From NCBI RefSeq assembly GCF_003334255.1, contig NZ_QOWU01000007.1: 64,000 nucleotides of DNA; one strand, written 5' to 3'. The stretch is from Escherichia coli. GTDB lineage: Bacteria; Pseudomonadota; Gammaproteobacteria; Enterobacterales; Enterobacteriaceae. A program made the translations under genes and the position numbers. Positions 10,242-24,834 of this stretch are shown piece by piece. Position 1 is the first letter of the stretch. Every line of letters begins with the position of its first letter. The notes under the pieces are model-generated. The model did no database searches. It worked only from the letters and a program-made list of their open reading frames with translations, and had not been told where the DNA came from.

Positions 10242-13200
10242 TTACACCTTTTCCACATTCACAAGGAAGGACTTAAACTCCGGCGTCTGCGTGTTCGCAT
10301 CACCAACGAATGGCGTTAAAGTATTGGCAATAAAGCCTTTTTTAGCTACGCCTTCATAGCCCCAGTGAATCGGAATACCGATGGTATCGATATCTTTGCC
10401 GTTCGCTTTCAGCGTGCGAATACGTTTGGTCACCACCGCTTTGGCTTTGATATAGCCACGGTTGGAGGAGACTTTCACGGTATCGCCCTGGGCAATGCCA
10501 AGTTTATTCGCCAGCGACTCCCCGATTTCCACAAACTGCTCTGGCTGCAAAATCGCGTTCAACAGCGCGTGTTTGGTCCAGTAGTGGAAGTGCTCGGTCA
10601 GACGATAGGTGGTTCCGACATACGGGAACTTATCGGCTTTACCCAATGCTTCGGCGTCGTCTTTAAAGATACGTGCAGCCGGGTTCGAGATAACGTTTGG
10701 ATGCAGCGGGTTAGTTCCCAGCGGCGTTTCAAACGGCTCGTAGTGTTCCGGGAACGGACCTTCCGCCATCTTATCGAGGGCAAACAGACGCCCCATGCCT
10801 TCCTGCTGCATGATAAACGGCCCGACGCCGCTACCCGGAGGCGCTGCGCTGTAGTCCGGAATATCCCAGCCGGTCCACTTAGTGCCGTCCCATTTCAGCA
10901 ACTGACGCTTCGGATCCCACGGGTTACCCTGCGGATCTGCGGAGGCGCGGTTATACAGAATGCGGCGGTTAAGCGGCCATGCCCATGCCCAGCCCAGCGT
11001 GTTACCGAGGCCAGACGGATCGGCGTTATCACGGCGTGCCATCTGGTTGCCTTCCGGCGTCCAGCTACCGGCGAAAATCCAGCAGCCACAGGAGGTTGTA
11101 CCGTCATCGCGCAATTGGGCGAACGAACTAAGTTGTTGGCCTTTCTTGACGATAACCGCACCGGTTGCCGGATCGGTAATATCGGCCAGCGCCTTACCGT
11201 TGCTCTCCATCGCCACTTCTTCTGAAGATGGCTCATGCGGAATGGCGTAGTTCCATGTCATGTTGAGCACCTGGTCCGGGTTCGCGCCACCCTGTTCGGC
11301 ATACATCTTGCGCAAGCGCAGGAAGATACCGGAGAGGATCTCGCCGTCAGTCAGCGCAATCCCCGGGGCGTCCGCACCTTTCCAGTGCCACTGTAACCAG
11401 CGACCTGAGTTAACGATAGAACCGTTCTCTTCCGCGAAGCAGGTCGATGGCAGACGGAACACTTCGGTCTGGATCTTCGACGAGTCAACTTCGTTCAGCT
11501 CACCGTGGTTCTGCCAGAAGTTAGAGGTTTCAGTGTTCAGTGGGTCGATGGTGACGAGGAACTTCAGTTTCGACAGACAACCGATCACTTTGTTTTTGTT
11601 CGGGAATGAGGCAACAGGGTTAAAGCCCTGGCAGATATAGCCATTGACCTTGCCCTCTTTCATCATCTCGAAGTATTGCAGGACGTCGTAGCCTTTATCC
11701 CACTTCGGCAACCAGTCAAAGCCCCAGCTATTTTCCGCCGTCGCTTTATCACCAAAGAAGGCCTTCATCATAGAGACGAAGAATTTCGGGTAGTTGCCCC
11801 AGTAGTTTACCTGGCCTTCCAGCAGCGGTTTTGGCGTGTTGGCGGTAAGGTAGGTTTGCAGATCGGTCTGCTTCTCGCTTGGCAGCGTCATGTAACCTGG
11901 CAGGCTCTGCGACAGCAGCCCCAGGTCCGTCAGCCCCTGAATATTGGAGTGACCGCGCAGGGCGTTAACGCCGCCGCCTGCCATCCCCATATTGCCGAGC
12001 AGCAGCTGGATCATCGCCATCGTACGAATGTTTTGCGCACCAACGGAGTGTTGCGTCCAGCCGAGGGCATACAGGAACGAGGCAGTTTTATCGTGAGCAC
12101 TGGTTTCTGCGATGTATTCGCAGACTTTCAGGAACGCGTCTTTTGGCGTACCACAGATGTTTTCAACCACATCTGGCGTGTAGCGGGAAACGTGCTGTTT
12201 CAGCAAGTTCCACACGCAGCGCGGATGTTGCAGCGTGGTATCGCGTTTGGCGAAGCCGTTTTCGTCCAGTTCATAAGTCCAGGAGGATTTATCGTACTTG
12301 CGTTTTTCCGCGTCGTAGCCGGTGAACAGGCCATCTTCAAAGCCGTAATCCTCACGCACGATCAGGCTGGCGTTGGTATAGGCTTCGGTGTATTCGCGGT
12401 TGAATTTTTCATTGTTCAGCAGGTACAGCAATACGCCTGACAGGAAAGCAATGTCAGTACCGGAACGAATAGGGGCATAGTAGTCAGCTACCGCCGCCGT
12501 ACGCGTAAAGCGAGGATCGATCACAATCAGCTTCGCGCCGTTGTGAATTTTGGCTTCCATCGCCCAGCGGAACCCGACCGGGTGAGCTTCAGCGGCATTA
12601 CCGCCCATCACCACGACGAGGTTGGCGTTCTTGATGTCGACCCAGTGGTTGGTCATCGCACCGCGACCAAATGTTGGAGCAAGACTTGCTACCGTTGGTC
12701 CGTGTCAGACACGCGCCTGGTTGTCGACCGCGAGCATACCCAGCGCGCGGGAGAATTTTTGCGTTAAATAGCCGGTTTCGTTACTCGACGCGGAAGCACA
12801 CAGCATCCCGGTGGAGAGCCAGCGGTTAACAGTCACGCCTTCGGCGTTTTGCGCAATGTAGTTAGCATCGCGGTCTTCTTTCATCAGTTTGGCGATGCGA
12901 TCAAACGCCTCTTCCCAACTGATTTGCTGCCATTTATCAGAACCTGGCGCACGGTATTCCGGAAACTTCAGACGGCTTTCGGAGTGGATGAAATCCACCA
13001 GGCCAGCGCCTTTCGGACAAAGTGCACCGCGGTTGACCGGGTGATCCGGATCGCCTTCGATATGGAAGATAGATGCTTTGGCGTTTTTTGCTCCGTCACC
13101 GAGGCTGTACATCAACAGCCCACAGCCTACGGAACAATAGGTGCAGGTATTACGGGTTTCGCGGGTGCGCAGCAGTTTATACTGCCGGGTTTCCGCGAGT

Positions 13201-13292
13201 GCTACGCTGGGTGCAAAACCCAGTGCCGCTGCCGTGGTGCCTGCCATACCGCCAGCGCAGATCTTAAAGAACTGCCTTCTGCTGACCTGCAT
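10242..13292 (-). CDS. fdoG: formate dehydrogenase-O major subunit, selenocysteine-containing (in-frame UGA at 12705-12707)
   Basis: ORF-track ORFs 12705-13292 (195 aa, Tat signal RRQFFKICAGGMAGTTAAALG) and 10242-12656 (804 aa) are in the same frame, separated by one TGA; combined length 1016 codons. Confidence 0.9.
12660..12704 (-). promoter_or_regulatory. probable SECIS stem-loop directly 3' of the fdoG UGA codon
   Basis: mRNA reads UGA CAC GGA CCA ACG GUA GCA AGU CUU GCU CCA ...; small hairpin GCAA/UUGC with GUC loop in the position expected for a bacterial SECIS. Confidence 0.5.
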
Positions 13293-13485
13293 GGATTGCT
13301 CCTTGTTTCGACATTGTCACGTCCCATTTACATTCGCTTGCTGCGTGTGCAGGGAGTGGGAGTTATTTTTCTTTGCGGAAGGGGCCGCAAAGGTCCAGAA
13401 TTGGCTCAATTTCCCTCCATCCAGGAAGGGTTTGTAACAGAATACCATAATGTTGGTGTGTGTGTTCTTATCTGGTTAAGAGAAA

Positions 13486-14319
13486 GTGAAAAAAACACAG
13501 CGAAAAGAAATCGAAAATGTGACAAATATCACAGGTGTTCGTCAAATTGAGTTATGGCGGCGTGATGATTTACAACACCCACGGTTAGATGAGGTCGCGG
13601 AAGAAGTTCCCGTTGCGCTGGTCTACAACGGCATTTCGCATGTGGTGATGATGGCGTCGCCCAAAGACCTTGAGTACTTTGCGCTCGGTTTTTCGCTTTC
13701 CGAGGGGATTATCGAAAGTCCGCGCGATATCTTCGGCATGGATGTCGTTCCTTCCTGTAATGGTCTTGAAGTACAAATTGAGCTTTCCAGCCGCCGCTTT
13801 ATGGGGTTGAAGGAGCGCCGCCGGGCGCTGGCGGGACGTACGGGCTGTGGCGTATGCGGCGTGGAGCAACTTAATGACATCGGAAAACCGGTGCAGCCGC
13901 TACCGTTCACCCAGACGTTTGATCTCAACAAACTGGATGATGCATTACGTCATCTCAACGATTTTCAGCCAGTGGGGCAACTGACTGGTTGTACTCACGC
14001 CGCTGCCTGGATGTTGCCATCTGGCGAACTGGTCGGCGGGCATGAAGACGTGGGTCGCCATGTGGCGCTGGACAAACTGTTAGGCCGCCGGTCACAAGAA
14101 GGGGAAAGCTGGCAGCAAGGTGCGGTACTGGTTTCCAGTCGTGCCAGTTATGAAATGGTGCAAAAGTCGGCGATGTGCGGCGTAGAGATTTTGTTTGCGG
14201 TGTCTGCCGCGACCACGCTTGCTGTAGAAGTGGCTGAGCGCTGTAATCTGACACTGGTAGGTTTTTGTAAACCGGGTCGGGCAACGGTTTATACCCATCC
14301 GCAGCGTTTGAGCAATTAA
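13486..14319 (+). CDS. fdhD: formate dehydrogenase sulfurtransferase / accessory protein FdhD
   Basis: 277-aa ORF divergent from fdoG; matches recalled FdhD. Confidence 0.9.
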
Positions 14320-14324
14320 TTAAA

Positions 14325-14370
14325 ATAAGTCCTGCGAAATATATTAAATTGCAGGACTTATTCATTTCGT
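14325..14370 (+). terminator. fdhD terminator hairpin (11-bp stem ATAAGTCCTGC / GCAGGACTTAT)
   Basis: Long inverted repeat 6 nt after the fdhD stop, followed by a T-containing run. Confidence 0.5.
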
Positions 14371-14471
14371 GAATTTTATTATTTTATTTATAAACAAAAT
14401 GCGTGTAGTGGCGTTTTCTTTTTTCATTTATTATGTTCACTCTCTTATCTATATATTTATAAGGCAATTAA

Positions 14472-15527
14472 ATGAAAAGGAATTTATTATCTTCCGCTAT
14501 TATAGTCGCCATCATGTCCCTCGGTCTGACGGGTTGTGATGATAAAAAAGCCGAAACAGAAACGCTCCCGCCTGCCAATAGTCAACCTGCCGCACCAGCT
14601 CCTGAAGCGAAACCTACTGAAGCTCCCGTTGCAAAAGCAGAAGCTAAACCTGAAACACCTGCGCAACCGGTGGTCGATGAACAAGCGGTTTTCGACGAAA
14701 AAATGGATGTCTATATCAAGTGCTACAACAAGTTACAGATCCCGGTACAGCGCAGTCTGGCGCGTTATGCTGACTGGCTGAAAGATTTTAAACAGGGGCC
14801 TACCGGTGAAGAGCGTACTGTTTATGGCATCTACGGCATTAGTGAATCCAACCTCGCTGAGTGTGAAAAAGGCGTAAAAAGTGCTGTGGCGTTAACGCCT
14901 GCGCTGCAACCAATTGATGGCGTGGCGGTGAGTTATATCGATGCTGCCGTGGCGTTGGGTAATACCATTAACGAAATGGATAAATATTACACCCAGGAAA
15001 ATTATAAAGACGATGCGTTTGCGAAAGGGAAAACGCTGCACCAGACATTCTTAAAAAATCTGGAAGCCTTTGAACCTGTAGCCGAATCTTATCATGCGGC
15101 GATTCAGGAAATTAATGATAAGCGTCAGCTTGCGGAATTGAAAAATATTGAAGAAAGAGAAGGGAAAACATTCCACTACTACTCTCTGGCAGTCATGATT
15201 TCAGCGAAACAAATTAATAACCTGATATCGCAAGATAAGTTTGATGCAGAAGCGGCAATGAAGAAAGTGTCTGAACTGGAAACGCTAGTGGCGCAGGCCA
15301 AAGAAGCGGATAAAGGCGGCATGAATTTCTCGTTTATTAATTCGGCAGGCCAGTATCAACTCGAGGCTAAAAAATACGTTCGCCGCATCAGAGATAAAGT
15401 CCCGTACTCTGACTGGGATAAAGAGCAACTTCAGGACGCAAACTCAAGCTGGATGGTCGAAGACTCTTTCCCGAGAGCATTACGCGAGTACAACGAAATG
15501 GTTGATGACTATAATAGCCTGCGTTAA
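14472..15527 (+). CDS. yiiG: lipoprotein YiiG (DUF3829 family)
   Basis: 351-aa ORF; lipoprotein signal with lipobox LGLTGC; Pro/Ala/Glu/Lys-rich linker after the signal peptide. Confidence 0.8.
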   Translation: MKRNLLSSAIIVAIMSLGLTGCDDKKAETETLPPANSQPAAPAPEAKPTEAPVAKAEAKPETPAQPVVDEQAVFDEKMDVYIKCYNKLQIPVQRSLARYADWLKDFKQGPTGEERTVYGIYGISESNLAECEKGVKSAVALTPALQPIDGVAVSYIDAAVALGNTINEMDKYYTQENYKDDAFAKGKTLHQTFLKNLEAFEPVAESYHAAIQEINDKRQLAELKNIEEREGKTFHYYSLAVMISAKQINNLISQDKFDAEAAMKKVSELETLVAQAKEADKGGMNFSFINSAGQYQLEAKKYVRRIRDKVPYSDWDKEQLQDANSSWMVEDSFPRALREYNEMVDDYNSLR

Positions 15528-15548
15528 ACGTTTTTGATGATAAATGCA

Positions 15549-15573
15549 GTGTCGGATGCGGCGCATCCGACAC
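15549..15573. terminator. near-perfect palindrome between convergent yiiG and frvR (candidate bidirectional terminator)
   Basis: gtgtcggatgcg-g-cgcatccgacac read directly; GC-rich stem of about 11 bp. Confidence 0.5.
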
Positions 15574-15576
15574 AGT

Positions 15577-17325
15577 TCACCCCTTGTGAAGTAACTCCAT
15601 AAATGCCTCATATCCTGTTAACCCGGCAATAATCTCCGCCGGATGCTGACACAATATGCTTGCCAGATAGCTAAATATTTTTAGCTCATGACGCGCATCG
15701 GCGGCGGCGCAGGCGATCAAGACATGGTTAATGACTTCGTTATTCACCTCAACTGGTTGGGCGAGGGTAATAAAAAATCCACGAAAACGTCGCTCCTGTT
15801 CGCTCCAGCAATGTGGGATGGCGAGGCGATTAACAATCAGGTTTTCACCTTCGCCTTCGCGGGCGATGATGCGTTGTGCTTCATCGGCGGTAATATGGTG
15901 TTGTGCGACTAATTGCGCACAAATTTGCCGGGTAATATGTTGCCAGCTTTCACCGCGTACATTCGAATAATGAAAACTTCCGGGGGCAGAGAAAAAACGC
16001 TCCGGCTGTTGGCGAATAAATGCCGTCGCCAGAAAATGTTTTATTTGTTCGATACCGGCAGCCGTAATGATATTTTTTACGGTGATGTAATTATTTACCG
16101 CGTCATCCAGTAAATAATGGCTGTTGTTAATGATCAATAACGGCTCAATCTCTTCGCGAATGGCAACAAGTTCGCTTAAGCTACGGGCAATAATTACCCG
16201 ACAATTTAAAACATCGCGCTCAATGGCGAGCTGATTAATAGTGGCAATCGCGTTCTGGTCCGAGAGCAAAATGATCGGCTGGCGTTCGTTTTGATGCCGC
16301 TCCAGCGCACAGGCAAAATACAAACCGATCAGATCGCTGTCGAAAAGGGGAATATCGAGCTGTTCACGCAGTAGCGTAATAAAGTGCAGACTCATATCAA
16401 AGGCCGCAGGCCAGGCGGCTTTCAGGTTATTCATGCTGCTCTGGCGGTGCTCAGCAATCCACACTGGTGCGGCAAGGCAACGTAATAAATGCCCGGTAAT
16501 ATTCTCAACCAGCTGCGCATCAATAATATTCAATGACGCGATGCCCGGCACCCTTTGCAGCAACCCCTGCACATTATCGGCTGAAATTACCTGCGCTTGC
16601 TGATGCTGTTTCTCTATCAAACCCGTCAGGGTTCTTACAGCGTTATCACCAAGAAACAGACCGCTATGTTCAACGATTTGTTTTATCTCGTCACCGGGAT
16701 ATTGCGGCCACTCATCGGTCAGTTGATTACGCAGGGCGTAAATCGCCAGAATCAGGCTGGAGAGATAATCACCCTGCATGAGCGGCCAGCGGTGTTGGTT
16801 GTCGCAGGCCGTGGATAAATGCTGAAGGTTGTCTCGTGTTATGCCCGCCAGCGGAATTAAAAACGGATCTTTGCGCAGCAAGTTCGCCAGCAAGATAACG
16901 CGTTTCTCTTCTGTCTCATCAATGAAATGGCCCAAACCAGGGCGGCTGGCCAGGCAACAAGTGCGTTCATAACGCTGTTTTAACCGGGGCAGACGCTCTG
17001 CTACCCACGTTTCTGGCAAATTAAGCGCCGAGGCGAGTTGCGCACGGGGAGTGAAAGTATTCAGTAATAACAGCGCCAGCAGCCGATCGTCGTTATCGTG
17101 CTTTTGCAGCAACTGAAAAAAGCTGCGGCGCTCGAAGATTTCCAGCTGATAGCCCGCACTACCACTGGCGAAAATGCGGGCTTTGCCGTTAAGGGTGAAG
17201 TTGAGATAGTCAATATCACGCAGGATGGTCCTGCCTGAAACGCCAGTCTGTTGCGCCAGCTCGCCAGGCGTGCGCGGCTGTTGCTCCAGCAGATCGACAA
17301 TCTTTAACTGGCGTTCGTTTAGCAT
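15577..17325 (-). CDS. frvR: frv operon transcriptional regulator
   Basis: 582-aa ORF; N-terminal HTH region; 1-bp overlap with frvX. Confidence 0.85.
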   Translation of the reverse strand: MLNERQLKIVDLLEQQPRTPGELAQQTGVSGRTILRDIDYLNFTLNGKARIFASGSAGYQLEIFERRSFFQLLQKHDNDDRLLALLLLNTFTPRAQLASALNLPETWVAERLPRLKQRYERTCCLASRPGLGHFIDETEEKRVILLANLLRKDPFLIPLAGITRDNLQHLSTACDNQHRWPLMQGDYLSSLILAIYALRNQLTDEWPQYPGDEIKQIVEHSGLFLGDNAVRTLTGLIEKQHQQAQVISADNVQGLLQRVPGIASLNIIDAQLVENITGHLLRCLAAPVWIAEHRQSSMNNLKAAWPAAFDMSLHFITLLREQLDIPLFDSDLIGLYFACALERHQNERQPIILLSDQNAIATINQLAIERDVLNCRVIIARSLSELVAIREEIEPLLIINNSHYLLDDAVNNYITVKNIITAAGIEQIKHFLATAFIRQQPERFFSAPGSFHYSNVRGESWQHITRQICAQLVAQHHITADEAQRIIAREGEGENLIVNRLAIPHCWSEQERRFRGFFITLAQPVEVNNEVINHVLIACAAADARHELKIFSYLASILCQHPAEIIAGLTGYEAFMELLHKG

Positions 17326-18401
17326 TAATCCACCTGACGGAACTGGCTAAACGCGTTGACTTTCTCCGCAGTTAAGGTCGTCAGAAAACCCCGTATCAGC
17401 GTGAGCAGAGCTTCGTAATCGGCTTTTGAAATCATACCGCTGTTGGCGTGCAGATAACGAGTTGGCAGACACAGCGCGACAACCGGACGCCCGCCGCCCA
17501 TCACGTTGTAGCGCCCGCCATCCGTCGCACCGGTTTTCATGGTGGAAAATTGCAGCGGTAAATCGTTATGTGCGGCACAGCTTTTTAACGCTGCTACCAG
17601 TTTCTGGTTGGGGAAGTAGCGCTTGTCAAACAGCATCAGCCCCGGCCCCTGGCCCAGTTTCAGCGGGTATTTAATGTTATCAATGCCCGGAACATCGCCC
17701 GCTACGGCGGTATCCAACACGATCACGACGTCCGGTTTAATGTGTTCCGCCGAGGTTTGCGCCCCGCGTAGCCCAACTTCTTCTTCCACACTGCCAACGC
17801 CATACAGCGTAATTTCGGGATTATTCACCGTCTGCAATAGTTCAGCCATCATTGCGCAGCCGATGCGGTTATCCAACGCCTTGCCGACCACTTTATCTTC
17901 GCCCCAGCAGGCAAAATTGGCTTCCGGGCTAATAAAATTACCAATTTCCACGCCGCGCTTTTCCACCTCTTCGCGACTGTTCGCGCCAATATCAATGAAC
18001 ATCTCATCAAATGACAGCGGTTGTTGCTTTTGCTTTTCCGTTAACGCATGAGGCGCGACGGAACCAATCACACCAGGGATTTTCACTCCCTTGTGTGTGC
18101 GTATGGTTACCCGGTGGTTGAGCATCGACTGATTCCACCAGCCGCCAATGGTGGTAAAACGCAGAAAACCGCTCTCGTCGATGTGGGTGACCATAAAGCC
18201 GACTTCATCCATATGTCCGACAACGGCAACTTTTGGACCTTTATTCCCCTTACGGGCAACAAAGCTGCCCAGACCATCGAAGGTGATTTCATTCACGCAA
18301 GGTTCCAGCGTGTTTATCAGAATGTCGCGAACTTCCTGTTCATCGCCGCTGACGGCGCTGGCTTCGCACAACTGTTGCAGTAACTCAATGTTCATGGACA
18401 A
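17325..18401 (-). CDS. frvX: M42-family peptidase-like protein of the frv operon
   Basis: 358-aa ORF (true start may be 2 codons later at MNIELLQQ); overlaps frvB by 17 bp. Confidence 0.85.
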   Translation of the reverse strand: MSMNIELLQQLCEASAVSGDEQEVRDILINTLEPCVNEITFDGLGSFVARKGNKGPKVAVVGHMDEVGFMVTHIDESGFLRFTTIGGWWNQSMLNHRVTIRTHKGVKIPGVIGSVAPHALTEKQKQQPLSFDEMFIDIGANSREEVEKRGVEIGNFISPEANFACWGEDKVVGKALDNRIGCAMMAELLQTVNNPEITLYGVGSVEEEVGLRGAQTSAEHIKPDVVIVLDTAVAGDVPGIDNIKYPLKLGQGPGLMLFDKRYFPNQKLVAALKSCAAHNDLPLQFSTMKTGATDGGRYNVMGGGRPVVALCLPTRYLHANSGMISKADYEALLTLIRGFLTTLTAEKVNAFSQFRQVD

Positions 18402-19842
18402 GCTCCTGTTGCGCGGCTTTCGCTTTGCGGCGTAACCACAATCCTTTCAGGACGATAATGAATGAAATGTTCAGCGCGAGGCCAATCGCCAGCACCAGAT
18501 AAAACGAACCCACCGGCGACATCAGGCCGATCAGCGGGTCAAAGATACCCAAACCAGGTGCCAGACGTTTGATTCCGAAAGCGATCACCAGCACGCCGGT
18601 AATGCCGCCCGCCAGCGTATTGGCGGTAATCATCGGCAACGGAGCTGCCAGAGCGTAAGGAATAGCCGGTTCGGTTGCGACTGTGGCACCGACCACAATG
18701 GCACTACTGGCAGCCTCTTTTTCCTGTCGGGTAAACAGTTTGGGCGCAATGAACGTCGCAAGACCCGCCGCGACGGGCGGCATCAGCGCGACAACGCCGA
18801 CGATGGCGTACCAGTCATAAATGTGTTTTTCCAGCAGTGAGAAGCAGAAGAACCAGGCGGTTTTATTGATGGGGCCGCCCATATCGAACGCCAGCATCGC
18901 ACCGACCAGAAACGCTGCCGCAAACTTCATTGATGGAGGAATGGTATTCAGGAAGTGGAGCAGCCCGCCCATGAGGTCGGACATCACCGGCCCGATAACG
19001 TAGTAAGTGAGCACGCCGAAAACCAGCAGAGTAACGAACGGGATCAGCATTGAACCGAGCAGCGGTTGTAATGCTTTGCCAAGGCGCACTTTGCGGAACC
19101 AGAAGACGAAATAGCCAATCGCCAGCCCCAGCACCACCGCGCCGAGGAATCCCGCACCCGACTGGGTGCCGAGCAGCGCTTTGTCGTTCGCCAGATAGCA
19201 AACCAGAAACGCCGGAGCGAAAGCCGGTTTATCGGCAATCGACGAGGCAATATAAGCGCCCATGATGGGGATCATAAAGGTGAAGCCAAGGTAACCGATG
19301 GATTCAACTACCCAGGTAAACGACGGCGCGCCTTTCGACATATCGGTATACGGCAAACCGAACTGCACCAGCATGTTGGCAAGCGCCACCAGGATACCAC
19401 CGCCGATGACAAACGGCAGCGCCGCAGAGACGCCCGCCATCAGGTGGCTCATCACGCTACCGCTTTGCACTTCCTGTTTGCCAAGCTTCACGCCGCTATC
19501 TGCGGCAAAAAGCTGCGAGTTTGTCGGTAATTCGCTGAAAATCTGGTCGATATTTTTCAACGCCTGGGAGATGGCAATCTCATAAACTTTCTTCCCGGCA
19601 AACCGCGCGCGATCATCACCGCTCAGGCCACGCCCGGTAGCGAGAATGACGTAATCGGCAGCGGCAATCTCTTCGCTGGATAAGCGGTTTTCAACGCCAC
19701 TGGACCCTTGAGTTTCCACTTTTATGGTATGACCGAGAGAACGGGCTTTCTGTTCCAGGGCTTCCGCCACCATGTAGGTGTGAGCGATCCCGGCGGGGCA
19801 GTTGGTGATCGCGACAATACGTAAGGATGACTCCATCGCCAC
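18385..19842 (-). CDS. frvB: fructose-like PTS enzyme IIBC component
   Basis: 485-aa ORF; N-terminal IIB domain (IVAITNCPAGIAHTYM) followed by a polytopic membrane domain. Confidence 0.85.
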   Translation of the reverse strand: MAMESSLRIVAITNCPAGIAHTYMVAEALEQKARSLGHTIKVETQGSSGVENRLSSEEIAAADYVILATGRGLSGDDRARFAGKKVYEIAISQALKNIDQIFSELPTNSQLFAADSGVKLGKQEVQSGSVMSHLMAGVSAALPFVIGGGILVALANMLVQFGLPYTDMSKGAPSFTWVVESIGYLGFTFMIPIMGAYIASSIADKPAFAPAFLVCYLANDKALLGTQSGAGFLGAVVLGLAIGYFVFWFRKVRLGKALQPLLGSMLIPFVTLLVFGVLTYYVIGPVMSDLMGGLLHFLNTIPPSMKFAAAFLVGAMLAFDMGGPINKTAWFFCFSLLEKHIYDWYAIVGVVALMPPVAAGLATFIAPKLFTRQEKEAASSAIVVGATVATEPAIPYALAAPLPMITANTLAGGITGVLVIAFGIKRLAPGLGIFDPLIGLMSPVGSFYLVLAIGLALNISFIIVLKGLWLRRKAKAAQQELVHEH

Positions 19843-19846
19843 TTCC

Positions 19847-20293
19847 TTATGAGCTGAGGGTTTGATTTAACAAGGCAAGCACCTGGTCGGTATCGCCCTG
19901 TTGCAGTTGATGAATAAATTCCTTGTGAATAATTTTGCGACACAGTGTGCCGATGATTTTGACCTGATCCTCTTCGCCGCTTTGCGGCACGCCGAGGCAG
20001 ATCCAGCAATTGACGTCTTCGCCATCGCTGGCTTTCCAGTCAATAGCCTGCGCTTTGCGGGCGAATAATACGAACGGTTGTTTAACGCAGGCGCTTTTAC
20101 CGTGCGGCACGGCGACACCGGAACCAAATCCAGTAGAGTGCATTTTTTCGCGCAGCAGCAGGGTTTGCAGGAACTGGTGTGAGTCGGTGATAAAACCGTT
20201 TTGTAACGCTATTGTCGCCAACTGCTTCAGAACGGAATAAGCGCCATTGCCCTGAATATTCAGGTCAATACAGCTTGCAGTAAGAGCTGCCAT
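19847..20293 (-). CDS. frvA: fructose-like PTS enzyme IIA component
   Basis: 148-aa ORF with PTS EIIA-type His region (GSGVAVPHG). Confidence 0.85.
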   Translation of the reverse strand: MAALTASCIDLNIQGNGAYSVLKQLATIALQNGFITDSHQFLQTLLLREKMHSTGFGSGVAVPHGKSACVKQPFVLFARKAQAIDWKASDGEDVNCWICLGVPQSGEEDQVKIIGTLCRKIIHKEFIHQLQQGDTDQVLALLNQTLSS

Positions 20294-20593
20294 TAATCGG
20301 ACTCCATAAAATATATTTTAATCAATTGTAATGGTGGAGCGATTAAGTGATGAGAGGCGATATGTCGGTAAACAATGACAATTTGAGACAGAGTGAAAGG
20401 TCAGATTTGCGGAGTAATGCACATAATGGTTATTTAAATAAACCACATGAATCATTAATGGGTTATTCATTATTTTTGTGATTTACTCACAATGTATCAG
20501 GGAAATATAACTTACCGGGAGATGTAATATGTTTAATTTTTCAAATCGAAATTTAAAATATTGTGCCGGAGGCATCTCTGGCACATTGGGCAA

Positions 20594-20908
20594 TTACGGC
20601 AGGTAAAACACTTCTTGCAGCTCGCTACTCACCGGGCTGTTATCCGGGTTAGCGGGCATAACATCGGTCATATATTTCCACCAACGTTGGCAAACATCAG
20701 TGCTGGCAACCGCATTCCAGCGTTCTTCAGATTCAATCTCTACCATGGCAAACAGCAGATTACGCGCTTTGTCGAGATAGATGGCGTAGTTATGCGCACC
20801 GTGAGATTTCAGCACTGCTTCCAGTTCTGGCCAGATGGGATTATGCCGACGCTGATACTCTTCGTGGGCGTCGGGGTTTACCTGCATGACAAAGGCTTTG
20901 CGGATCAT
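20594..20908 (-). CDS. rhaM: L-rhamnose mutarotase
   Basis: 104-aa [33 protein letters not shown] matches recalled RhaM/YiiL. Confidence 0.9.
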
Positions 20909-20917
20909 GTTTGCTCC

Positions 20918-21742
20918 TTACAGCGCCAGCGCACTGGCGAGTGGCGTAACGCCGAAACGCTTGCCGAGCGCTATCAACTCTTCACGGCTGATGGTCTGTT
21001 TCATGCCGCCCATCGAATAAACCTTCACTAATACTTGTGCTGATTTTTCTGCGGTGTCGATTAAACCGAAGGTTTCATCCAGCGTCGGTCCGCTGCCGAA
21101 GACGCCGTGGAAGGGCCACAACACCAGCGAATGTTTTTGCATCTCTTGTGCGGTCGCCTGGCCGATTTCGTCCGTGCCGGGCACCATCCACGGCAAAATG
21201 CCAACGCCATCCGGGAATACCACCAGACACTCGGTGCTGCCTTCCCACAGTTGGCGAGTGAAGACCGCGGTGTCGTTTTCAAGTACATAGGTGAGGGCGA
21301 TCAGGTTGGTGGCGTGGCAGTGCATGATCACCCGATCTTTGCCGTTGGTGGCTTTAATGCGCTCGCAGTGGGAAAGGAAGTGAGCCGGAAGTTCGGAAGT
21401 GGGGACGGCTTCGTTGGTTAACCCCCAAAGAATGTGGTAGCCCGCGCCGTCGCTGTCGACTTTTACGATGCCTAAGTTAGCCGCAGGATCAAGCTGGACG
21501 TTACGGAAGAATTTGCCCGAGCCGGTGACAATAAACGGTGTATTTGCCAGTAAAGGCATGGGCTGGCTGAGCGGGATATAGCGCGGTTGTTGGTGGAAAT
21601 TGTCGTGATATGGTGCGATATCGGCGTCATCCAGGCGTAGCGTCAGGTTGCCGCCGTTGCGCTCATCCCAGCCTTTCAGCCAGGCGTCGGTGGTGGCTTT
21701 GATCATTCCCTGGACAAACCAGGACTGAGTAATGTTTTGCAT
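20918..21742 (-). CDS. rhaD: rhamnulose-1-phosphate aldolase
   Basis: ORF-track ORF 20918-21814; true start taken as [32 protein letters not shown] (274 aa). Confidence 0.9.
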
Positions 21743-21767
21743 GTTCTGTGTTCCTGTAAATTCGGTG

Positions 21768-21822
21768 TTGTCGGATGCACGACCCGTAGGCCGGATAAGG
21801 CGCTCGCGCCGCATCCGGCAGT
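21768..21822. repeat. REP element between rhaD and rhaA
   Basis: gtaggccggataaggcgctcgcgccgcatccggca. Confidence 0.75.
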
Positions 21823-21824
21823 GT

Positions 21825-24834
<3,010 letters not shown>

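Follow-up and report, generated by a model that had tools for sequence, protein, structure and literature searches.

Why would a peptidase gene be held between a sugar permease and its regulator? We addressed this question at the frvABXR locus of Escherichia coli, which lies in a 64-kb stretch of contig NZ_QOWU01000007.1 (assembly GCF_003334255.1; the whole stretch is hereafter called the window). frvABXR is an already known, annotated E. coli operon on the minus strand (15577-20293), long on record yet uncharacterised, with four co-directional open reading frames that encode components of the phosphotransferase system (PTS), a peptidase and a regulator:

19847-20293, minus strand: frvA, enzyme IIA (EIIA) of the fructose/mannitol-type PTS, 148 amino acids (RefSeq, NCBIfam NF007389, TIGR00848)
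18385-19836, minus strand: frvB, EIIB-EIIC of the PTS Fru family, 483 amino acids, ATG start at 19836 (NCBIfam NF008493)
17325-18395, minus strand: frvX, predicted M42 (TET-type) metallo-aminopeptidase, 356 amino acids, ATG start at 18395 (PF05343, NF007367)
15577-17325, minus strand: frvR, predicted multidomain regulator, 582 amino acids (Pfam HTH_11 and PTS_EIIA_2, AlphaFold2 model, Foldseek)

Altogether, the data presented below make it probable that frvABXR is a self-contained, horizontally mobile module, in which the FrvAB permease, the cytoplasmic, dinuclear-metal M42 aminopeptidase FrvX and the PTS-controlled activator FrvR serve a conjugate cargo.

The four genes are real, intact and tightly packed. 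Positions 15000-23000 of the window are 100% identical to many complete E. coli chromosomes, and the four frv reading frames are 100% identical to RefSeq frvA, frvB, frvX and frvR in several E. coli genomes. The RefSeq order on the minus strand is rhaBADM, frvA, frvB, frvX, frvR, then yiiG, fdhD and fdnG. A preliminary description of this DNA had reported the gene order and tight packing of the four genes, both of which were borne out. The span that it gave for the four-gene operon, 17325-19847, contains frvX and frvB and leaves frvA and frvR outside, its edges being the frvA stop codon at one end and the frvR start codon at the other.

We examined the permease against curated models. The earlier assignment of FrvA as a Fru-type IIA and FrvB as a Fru-type IIBC agrees with the NCBIfam cut-offs. 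FrvA scored 289.9 bits with NF007389 (cut-off 151) and 146.6 bits with TIGR00848 (cut-off 103.5), while FrvB scored 1034 bits with NF008493 (cut-off 806), the second-best models being FruA (271 bits) and MngA (256 bits). The N-terminal EIIB domain of FrvB and the EIIC membrane domain that follows it matched TIGR00829 (EIIB-Fru, 102.8 bits, cut-off 76.85) and TIGR01427 (EIIC-Fru, 196 bits, cut-off 157.55), respectively. The residues of the FrvAB phosphorelay are intact: the active-site His64 of FrvA lies in the motif VPHG and Cys13 of FrvB in the motif ITNCPAGIAHT (NCPAGIAHT). The substrate had been called unclear, and indeed no substrate assignment for frv is reported in the literature that we searched. 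Most matches to "FrvA" or "FrvR" in that literature were set aside as unrelated (a Listeria P-type ATPase, human variant abbreviations and a likely misprint for FpvR).

FrvX was correctly placed in the M42 family by the preliminary description. It matched PF05343 (M42) across model positions 1-292 of 292 (E = 1.9e-102) and NF007367 at 843 bits (cut-off 569), and it aligned end to end with the PDB relatives 1vhe (1e-86), 5ds0 and PhTET2 1y0r (4e-67). Its predicted metal and catalytic residues are H61, D63, D175, E205, E206, D228 and H316, of which H61, D175, E205/E206, D228 and H316 align with the HMD, DDR, QEEVG, D and YIH motifs of 1y0r and 1vhe. Judged from its sequence, FrvX is a full-length M42 aminopeptidase that keeps every metal and catalytic residue, with the same full-length fold, metal ligands and catalytic Glu-Glu pair as the TET/M42 enzymes PhTET1-3, Bacillus subtilis YsdC (1vhe) and YpdE. 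Archaeal and Bacillus TET enzymes are regarded as general peptide trimmers downstream of proteasome-like proteases, whereas FrvX sits in a substrate-specific PTS module. The PDB entries titled "FrvX" are Pyrococcus TET proteins, and we found neither a structure nor an assay of the E. coli protein. Records of Shigella dysenteriae and S. boydii hold a shortened FrvX of 299-302 amino acids, which could mean that the operon is decaying locally in Shigella.

Is a peptidase then an odd partner for a PTS, as had been proposed? It is not: all three M42 paralogues of E. coli lie in PTS operons, namely frvX, ypdE (in fryA-ypdE-ypdF-fryC-fryB) and sgcX (in sgc), and the pairing is kept from Enterobacterales to Listeria. 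The paralogues have diverged (29-35% identity overall), YpdE being 35% and SgcX 29% identical to FrvX. Like frv, the fry and sgcXBCQAER operons are uncharacterised E. coli PTS operons that hold an M42 peptidase (YpdE and SgcX, respectively). They differ from frv in their regulators, since fry has an adjacent AraC-type protein, YpdC, and sgc a DeoR-type protein, SgcR; moreover, the PTS of sgc belongs to the Gat family, and fry encodes an additional peptidase, YpdF.

The module is conserved as a unit. In Enterobacterales it is found in at least ten genera, and it recurs in Listeria sensu lato. When we scanned species-representative genomes with a seven-sequence FrvR alignment, 28 loci were recovered: 18 in Enterobacteriaceae (Escherichia, Citrobacter, Klebsiella, Kluyvera, Salmonella diarizonae, Trabulsiella, Enterobacter, Buttiauxella and Atlantibacter), nine in Listeria sensu lato and one in Granulicatella. 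FrvA and FrvB adjoin FrvR at every one of them (28/28). In Hafnia, Enterobacter, Citrobacter, Klebsiella and Buttiauxella too the module stays together while its flanks vary. Enterobacterial neighbours include rha genes, azlCD and a Gat-family PTS operon, and those in Hafnia are ispH and genes of the xanthine-dehydrogenase-like kind. Between Listeria and E. coli, identity is 77-78% for FrvB, 60-65% for FrvX, 36-39% for FrvA and 32-35% for FrvR, and the Listeria FrvA and FrvB score above the cut-offs of the NCBIfam equivalog models for their E. coli counterparts. Regulators of the PRD/Mga type are typical of Firmicutes, and it therefore seems likelier that the module passed from Bacilli to Enterobacterales than the other way. 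The gene orders are as follows:

Enterobacterales: IIA, IIBC, M42, FrvR
Listeria sensu lato: IIA, IIBC, M42, lyase, FrvR (M42 missing in L. rocourtiae)
Granulicatella: IIA, IIBC, FrvR, lyase
Two metagenomic relatives (L047, L049): IIA, IIBC, lyase, FrvR
Enterococcus-like contig (L048): IIA, IIBC, lyase, FrvR, PepT-like M20 peptidase

The additional gene that stands between frvX and frvR in the Listeria modules encodes a PatB-family C-S lyase (TIGR04350, 367 bits, cut-off 340), the closest solved relative of which is E. coli MalY (1d2f, 4e-105). Thus, in Bacilli the lyase is the constant enzyme partner of the FrvA/FrvB/FrvR relatives and the peptidase the variable one; the module has gained an MH-clan aminopeptidase on at least two occasions, the enzymes belonging to different families. 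Enterobacterial modules keep the peptidase and lack the lyase, and no other conserved catabolic gene lies beside frv in the enterobacterial loci that we fetched. The comparative search for co-occurring catabolic genes that the preliminary description had suggested therefore returned none that is constant in Enterobacterales, and the PatB-type lyase in Bacilli. In Klebsiella and Buttiauxella, a divergent Gat-family PTS operon stands upstream of frvA, which is not kept with frv elsewhere; the Klebsiella operon holds EIIA, EIIB and EIIC-GAT genes, a phosphofructokinase-like gene and a class II aldolase, and the sequence of the Buttiauxella locus ends at the aldolase.

We next turned to the regulator. 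The only Pfam matches in FrvR are an N-terminal HTH_11 domain (E = 8e-10) and a C-terminal PTS_EIIA_2 domain (E = 3e-13, residues 455-560), and the predicted layout of the protein is:

Residues 1-150 (about): two winged helix-turn-helix (HTH) domains
Residues 164-345 (about): two PRD-like helical bundles, with an invariant His279 in the second bundle
Residues 349-440 (about): an EIIB-like alpha/beta domain without Cys
Residues 450-582 (about): an EIIA type-2 domain, with invariant His505-Cys506 in the motif IPHC

The FrvR family is tiny, with 195 matches at E <= 0.001 among 1.84 billion representative proteins. Distant relatives carry the Pfam domains PRD (24/65), Mga (23/65) and PTS_IIB (9/65). 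When compared with the PDB, the family profile reached AcpB, Mga and AtxA over residues 5-445, the PRDs of LicT and GlcT over 253-352, and PtsN/IIA-Mtl over 445-588. An AlphaFold2 model of FrvR (mean pLDDT, the predicted local distance difference test, 91.9) places two five-helix bundles at the PRD-like region; Foldseek matched this model to MgaSpn, AtxA and the Enterococcus faecalis Mga-family protein 3sqn in alignments of about 480 columns (E about 1e-9), and its C-terminus to EIIA-Ntr (PtsN) and EIIA-Mtl with target-normalised TM-scores of about 0.7. On the strength of profiles and model, we classify FrvR as a diverged PRD-type PTS activator with an MtlR/LicR-like layout and a predicted Mga/AtxA-like core. 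Its 582 amino acids, previously taken to be unusually many, are normal for multidomain PRD-type PTS activators, and its relatives measure 570-660 amino acids. The nearest precedent is B. subtilis MtlR, which likewise combines an HTH, an Mga-like HTH, PRD-like bundles and EIIB-like and EIIA(Mtl/Fru)-like domains in a somewhat longer chain (about 690 amino acids). Like FrvR, regulators of the MtlR/LicR/ManR class are encoded with, or control, their cognate PTS. For MtlR, both the phosphorylation logic and a palindromic operator adjoining the -35 box have been described (PMC3217849).

The region between rhaM and frvA holds the sites through which such a regulator could act. This spacer of 300 nucleotides (nt) is AT-rich (36% GC), and the frv genes themselves have a GC content of 50-56%; their base composition gave no sign of recent transfer. 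We aligned the regions upstream of frvA from 18 enterobacterial genomes and found four conserved blocks, which in the window are:

20408-20423, minus strand: CRP-like site TGTGCATTACTCCGCA, of the form TGTG-N8-C(A/G)CA, with TGTG and C-CA invariant in the 18 enterobacterial regions
20362-20380, minus strand: candidate FrvR operator, TGTCA-TTGTTTAC-CGACAT, about 30 nt upstream of the -10
20325-20330, minus strand: likely -10 hexamer TACAAT (TAAAAT or TACAAT in other genera), with no good -35 alongside
20302-20305, minus strand: frvA Shine-Dalgarno GGAG, invariant in the 18 genomes

Across the 18 regions, the palindrome takes the form (A/T)TGTCA-N8-9-(T/C)GACAT, and the family consensus is ATGTCA-N8-9-TGACAT. 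Upstream of Listeria frvA the palindrome ATGTCA-N9-TGACAT is present (10 Listeria), and in Granulicatella its core TGTCA-N7-10-TGACA. It occurs once in the 64-kb window and once per fetched locus, always at the position upstream of frvA. Because it was inherited with FrvR across two phyla, the palindrome is best read as the FrvR operator, and we regard it as a likely candidate for this role. A sigma-70 consensus scan found no complete promoter upstream of frvA and nothing convincing, whether promoter or terminator, inside the operon; the missing full sigma-70 promoter is in line with an activator-dependent one. The site at 20408-20423 is tentatively assigned to CRP by its likeness to the CRP consensus, TGTGA-N6-TCACA. 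Enterobacterial CRP-like sites stand upstream of the palindrome, and at Listeria frv loci a cre-like AAGCGTTATCA is found just downstream of it instead; catabolite control was apparently rewired once the module had been transferred. The position of the palindrome, just upstream of a promoter without a -35 box, matches the MtlR precedent (PMC3217849), where the palindromic operator directly precedes a weak -35 and catabolite control comes in addition.

Another near-perfect palindrome, TGTGAGTAAATCACA, lies at 20477-20491 (minus strand) and resembles a CRP site with a spacer of 5 nt and not 6 nt. It is limited to the K-12-like allele of the window; Escherichia sp. and other genera lack it.

Has the operon been kept for a function? 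The preliminary description had called it cryptic, which does not hold if decay is meant. Between genera, the ratio of nonsynonymous to synonymous substitution rates (dN/dS) is 0.04-0.16 for all four frv genes, with synonymous sites near saturation; within E. coli it is 0.01-0.14, and the reading frames are intact, without internal stops. We found the operon in 4218/5426 complete E. coli genomes, and 4185/4218 carriers keep at least 80% of it. The frv operon is thus accessory yet under purifying selection, and not a decaying remnant. Its alleles within E. coli are unusually far apart (dS 0.12-0.50). The rhaM alleles are likewise far apart, and whole-operon DNA identity is as low as 91.9%; such distances in frv and rhaM suggest old allelic lineages or recombination with other species.

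Strains without the operon show what can happen at this site. In NZ_CP123247, IS1 stands in place of positions 15618-20489, so that of frvR the final 41 nt remain, the right boundary of the deletion falling inside the palindrome at 20477-20491, and strain ST95-32 lacks the frv operon and has a truncated yiiG. The interval from fdhD to rhaM is a rearrangement hotspot. In 2544/5426 E. coli genomes (at least 80% coverage), frvA and rhaM are separated by a gene for a carbohydrate porin of 464 amino acids, which is RafY-like, its DNA being about 86% identical to the porin gene of plasmid raf operons. The window has 167 unrelated bases (20426-20592) where other E. coli have this porin. We considered the RafY-like porin as a partner of frv and rejected it: strains without frv still have it beside rhaM, and the fetched loci of other genera do not contain it.

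The tight packing of the genes had been taken to imply translational coupling, on the figures of a 4-bp gap between frvA and frvB, a 17-bp overlap of frvB and frvX and a 1-bp overlap of frvX and frvR. The first two figures arise because the starts of a longest-reading-frame listing were used, GTG at 19842 for frvB and TTG at 18401 for frvX. We compared the junctions in six genera (Escherichia, Citrobacter, Klebsiella, Enterobacter, Buttiauxella and Hafnia). The contexts ATGGAG.. and ATGAACAT. of the ATG codons at 19836 and 18395 are kept in all six. The GTG and TTG starts are unconserved and only 1 nt from the Shine-Dalgarno; they were therefore rejected, which leaves a 10-nt gap and overlaps of 11 nt and 1 nt as the real junctions:

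19837-19846, minus strand: frvA/frvB junction, 10-nt spacer TAAGGAAGTGGCGATG, with AGGA 7 nt before the ATG at 19836
18385-18395, minus strand: frvB/frvX junction, 11-nt overlap ATGAACATTGA, with AGGAG within frvB, 7 nt before the frvX ATG
17323-17327, minus strand: frvX/frvR junction, TAATG, 1-nt overlap

The 1-nt overlap thus stood, whereas the other two figures did not; start-codon misannotation, which the preliminary description had named as grounds for its own refutation, accounts for the frvB and frvX figures and so partly applies, and the corrected junctions (+10, -11 and -1 nt) are still tight. Five of the six genera keep the +10 and -11 spacings, Hafnia having +25 and +1. The frvX/frvR junction varies more (-1, -1, -1, +9, +76 and +82), the 1-nt overlap being found in Escherichia, Citrobacter and Klebsiella and not in Enterobacter, Buttiauxella or Hafnia. 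Shine-Dalgarno boxes (AGGA, AGGAG and GGTGG) lie 4-7 nt before the ATG codons of frvB, frvX and frvR, and stop/start overlaps with a Shine-Dalgarno inside the upstream gene are consistent with translational coupling. Spacings elsewhere in the same 50 kb are similar (metL/metB +2, hslV/hslU +9, cpxR/cpxA -4, rhaB/rhaA -4, rhaD/rhaM +9): the frv packing is real and is normal operon spacing, no more than expected by chance. At the other end of the operon we found one further element:

15549-15573: REP-like (repetitive extragenic palindromic) hairpin with an 11-bp stem (minimum free energy -22.4 kcal/mol, z = -3.4 versus shuffles)

The hairpin directly follows the frvR stop codon, between the convergent frvR and yiiG, and probably marks the 3' end of the operon. 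Rfam gave no match to an RNA family over 13000-23000.

How could these parts work together? In the mechanism that we propose, transcription would start about 25 nt upstream of frvA, from the promoter without a -35 box. FrvR bound to ATGTCA-N8-9-TGACAT would activate this promoter, helped in enterics by CRP-cAMP (cyclic AMP), with a cre-like box in place of the CRP site in Listeria. Phosphorylation of His279 by HPr~P would stimulate FrvR, as in MtlR, while an idle FrvAB chain would phosphorylate the EIIA-like His505 and inhibit it; hence the substrate would act as inducer. The four cistrons would be translated from one mRNA and coupled at the -11 and -1 overlaps. FrvAB would import and phosphorylate a fructose- or mannose-like compound bearing an aminoacyl or peptidyl group, and FrvX would trim the N-terminal residue or residues off the phosphorylated cargo.

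The nature of this cargo is suggested by gene neighbourhood, from which it probably carries an amino acid or a short peptide. We base this on the constant presence of FrvX inside the enterobacterial module together with the three M42 paralogues in PTS operons, on the PatB/MalY-type lyase of the Bacilli relatives, one of which has a PepT-like M20 peptidase for the M42 enzyme, and on a PTS cluster of Lactobacillus sakei, unrelated to frv, that combines a Lac-family PTS with two aminopeptidases, MalY and PRD proteins (PMC5845896). A cysteine conjugate would be a reasonable guess. In the most specific version of this idea, frv-type modules would salvage sugars resembling fructose or mannose that are joined to cysteine or to a short Cys-peptide, as an S-conjugate or an N-aminoacyl sugar. 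FrvAB would phosphorylate the sugar part, an MH-clan aminopeptidase (the M42 FrvX in Listeria and enterics, the PepT-like M20 enzyme in the Enterococcus-like genome) would expose the amino acid, and a PatB/MalY-type lyase would release pyruvate, ammonia and a thiol-sugar phosphate; in E. coli the peptidase step would lie in the operon, and MalY or MetC would act in trans. In this detailed form the proposal is speculative, and we think it more apt to be wrong than right by a wide measure.

Two kinds of known system resemble what we propose. Among the characterised relatives of FrvB, FruA and MngA, the PTS for 2-O-alpha-mannosyl-D-glycerate, score best; in MngA/MngB, as in the proposed frv route, a Fru-family PTS imports a sugar conjugate that a cytoplasmic hydrolase of the same operon splits. 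Unlike FrvX, MngB is a GH38 mannosidase and not a peptidase, and the mng regulator is of the GntR type. In malX-malY and in the dipeptidase/PatB route of Staphylococcus hominis for Cys-Gly S-conjugates, a transporter is paired with a PatB/MalY-type lyase. The staphylococcal route also has an aminopeptidase step, and a peptide transporter instead of a PTS; malX, unlike frv, is a Glc-family PTS, and E. coli frv has no lyase. Gene neighbourhood is what links frv to these systems.

Several observations weigh against the view that frvABXR is a functional, self-contained module for a conjugate. The literature that we searched, which did not cover the original 1994 description, holds no experiment on frv expression, transport or FrvX activity. 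The operon is missing from 1208/5426 (22%) complete E. coli genomes. No peptidase is found in L. rocourtiae, Granulicatella, L047 and L049, so that it is dispensable in some relatives, and without the lyase the E. coli pathway may be incomplete or different. FrvR itself has no Pfam match to PRD, its PRD-like bundles being too diverged, and it is the family profile that reaches the LicT/GlcT PRDs at residues 253-352. Unlike in MtlR, His279 is the sole PRD histidine that is invariant in the FrvR family, and the EIIB-like motif position reads IILLSDQNAIATIN, with no cysteine conserved there, in which FrvR is closer to Mga/AtxA; the phosphorylation scheme of MtlR could therefore apply only in part. 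Lastly, each half-site of the Escherichia operator is one base off the consensus, and the right half of the Escherichia CRP-like site is CGCA.

These points bear on the alternatives. FrvX could be a housekeeping aminopeptidase that merely rides along while FrvAB carries an ordinary sugar, for example fructose or mannose. Enzymes of the M42/TET type are aminopeptidases that trim peptides broadly, many without a link to a PTS (PMC3511314), the module encodes no sugar-processing enzyme and, as said, some relatives do without the peptidase. However, permease and regulator enclose frvX from Hafnia to Listeria despite differing flanks, three M42 paralogues that have diverged from one another each sit in a different E. 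coli PTS operon, and the relatives recruit a PatB-type lyase or a PepT-like peptidase and never a glycosidase or kinase; we consider this explanation unlikely, while keeping it as a serious contender. If instead the E. coli operon were a silent remnant, a horizontally acquired module that has since lost its key C-S lyase, supports a pathway no more and is being lost from the species, then its absence from more than a thousand genomes, the IS1 deletion, the loss in ST95-32, the lack of the lyase that is constant in Bacilli, the slightly degenerate operator half-sites of Escherichia and the truncated FrvX of Shigella would all find an explanation. Such a fate is hard to reconcile with the purifying selection seen in each of the four genes, across genera as well as between diverged E. 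coli alleles, with intact frames, with near-complete operons in almost all carriers and with the conservation of promoter, operator, CRP-like site and Shine-Dalgarno across Enterobacteriaceae; moreover, E. coli has MalY, the closest solved relative of the Listeria lyase, elsewhere. We therefore hold it to be very unlikely.

Least credible of all is that FrvX acts as a glycoside hydrolase, an endoglucanase like CelM, on a phosphorylated oligosaccharide delivered by FrvAB. Old database names of M42 members do include "endoglucanase" and "Frv operon protein", and PTS operons usually encode a phospho-glycosidase. Nevertheless, M42 "cellulases" that were tested elsewhere turned out to be aminopeptidases, the old "endoglucanase" label being wrong for those members (PMC3511314), FrvX has a complete predicted two-metal aminopeptidase site, and it gave no match to a glycoside-hydrolase family in Pfam and NCBIfam profile searches. 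We thus retain, as the probable reading, the self-contained mobile module with a conjugate cargo.

E. coli has several orphan PTS operons, frvABXR among them, that have been without a substrate since its genome was sequenced. The preliminary description, as written, added nothing to the existing annotation; the palindrome, the link between frv and Listeria and the association with a lyase are not described in the papers that we searched, and they are leads and not a new kind of system. The analysis narrows the problem: the module appears functional, is shared with Listeria and has a recognisable operator and CRP-like site that could be used for reporters. In its relatives, the transporter is always accompanied by peptidases or by a lyase of the cysteine-conjugate type. 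Taken as a whole, these points make conjugates of a sugar with an amino acid or a peptide testable candidate inducers. If the salvage of cysteine-linked sugars proved true, that scheme could also account for the orphan malXY, fry-ypdEF and sgc operons of E. coli and the MalY cluster of L. sakei.

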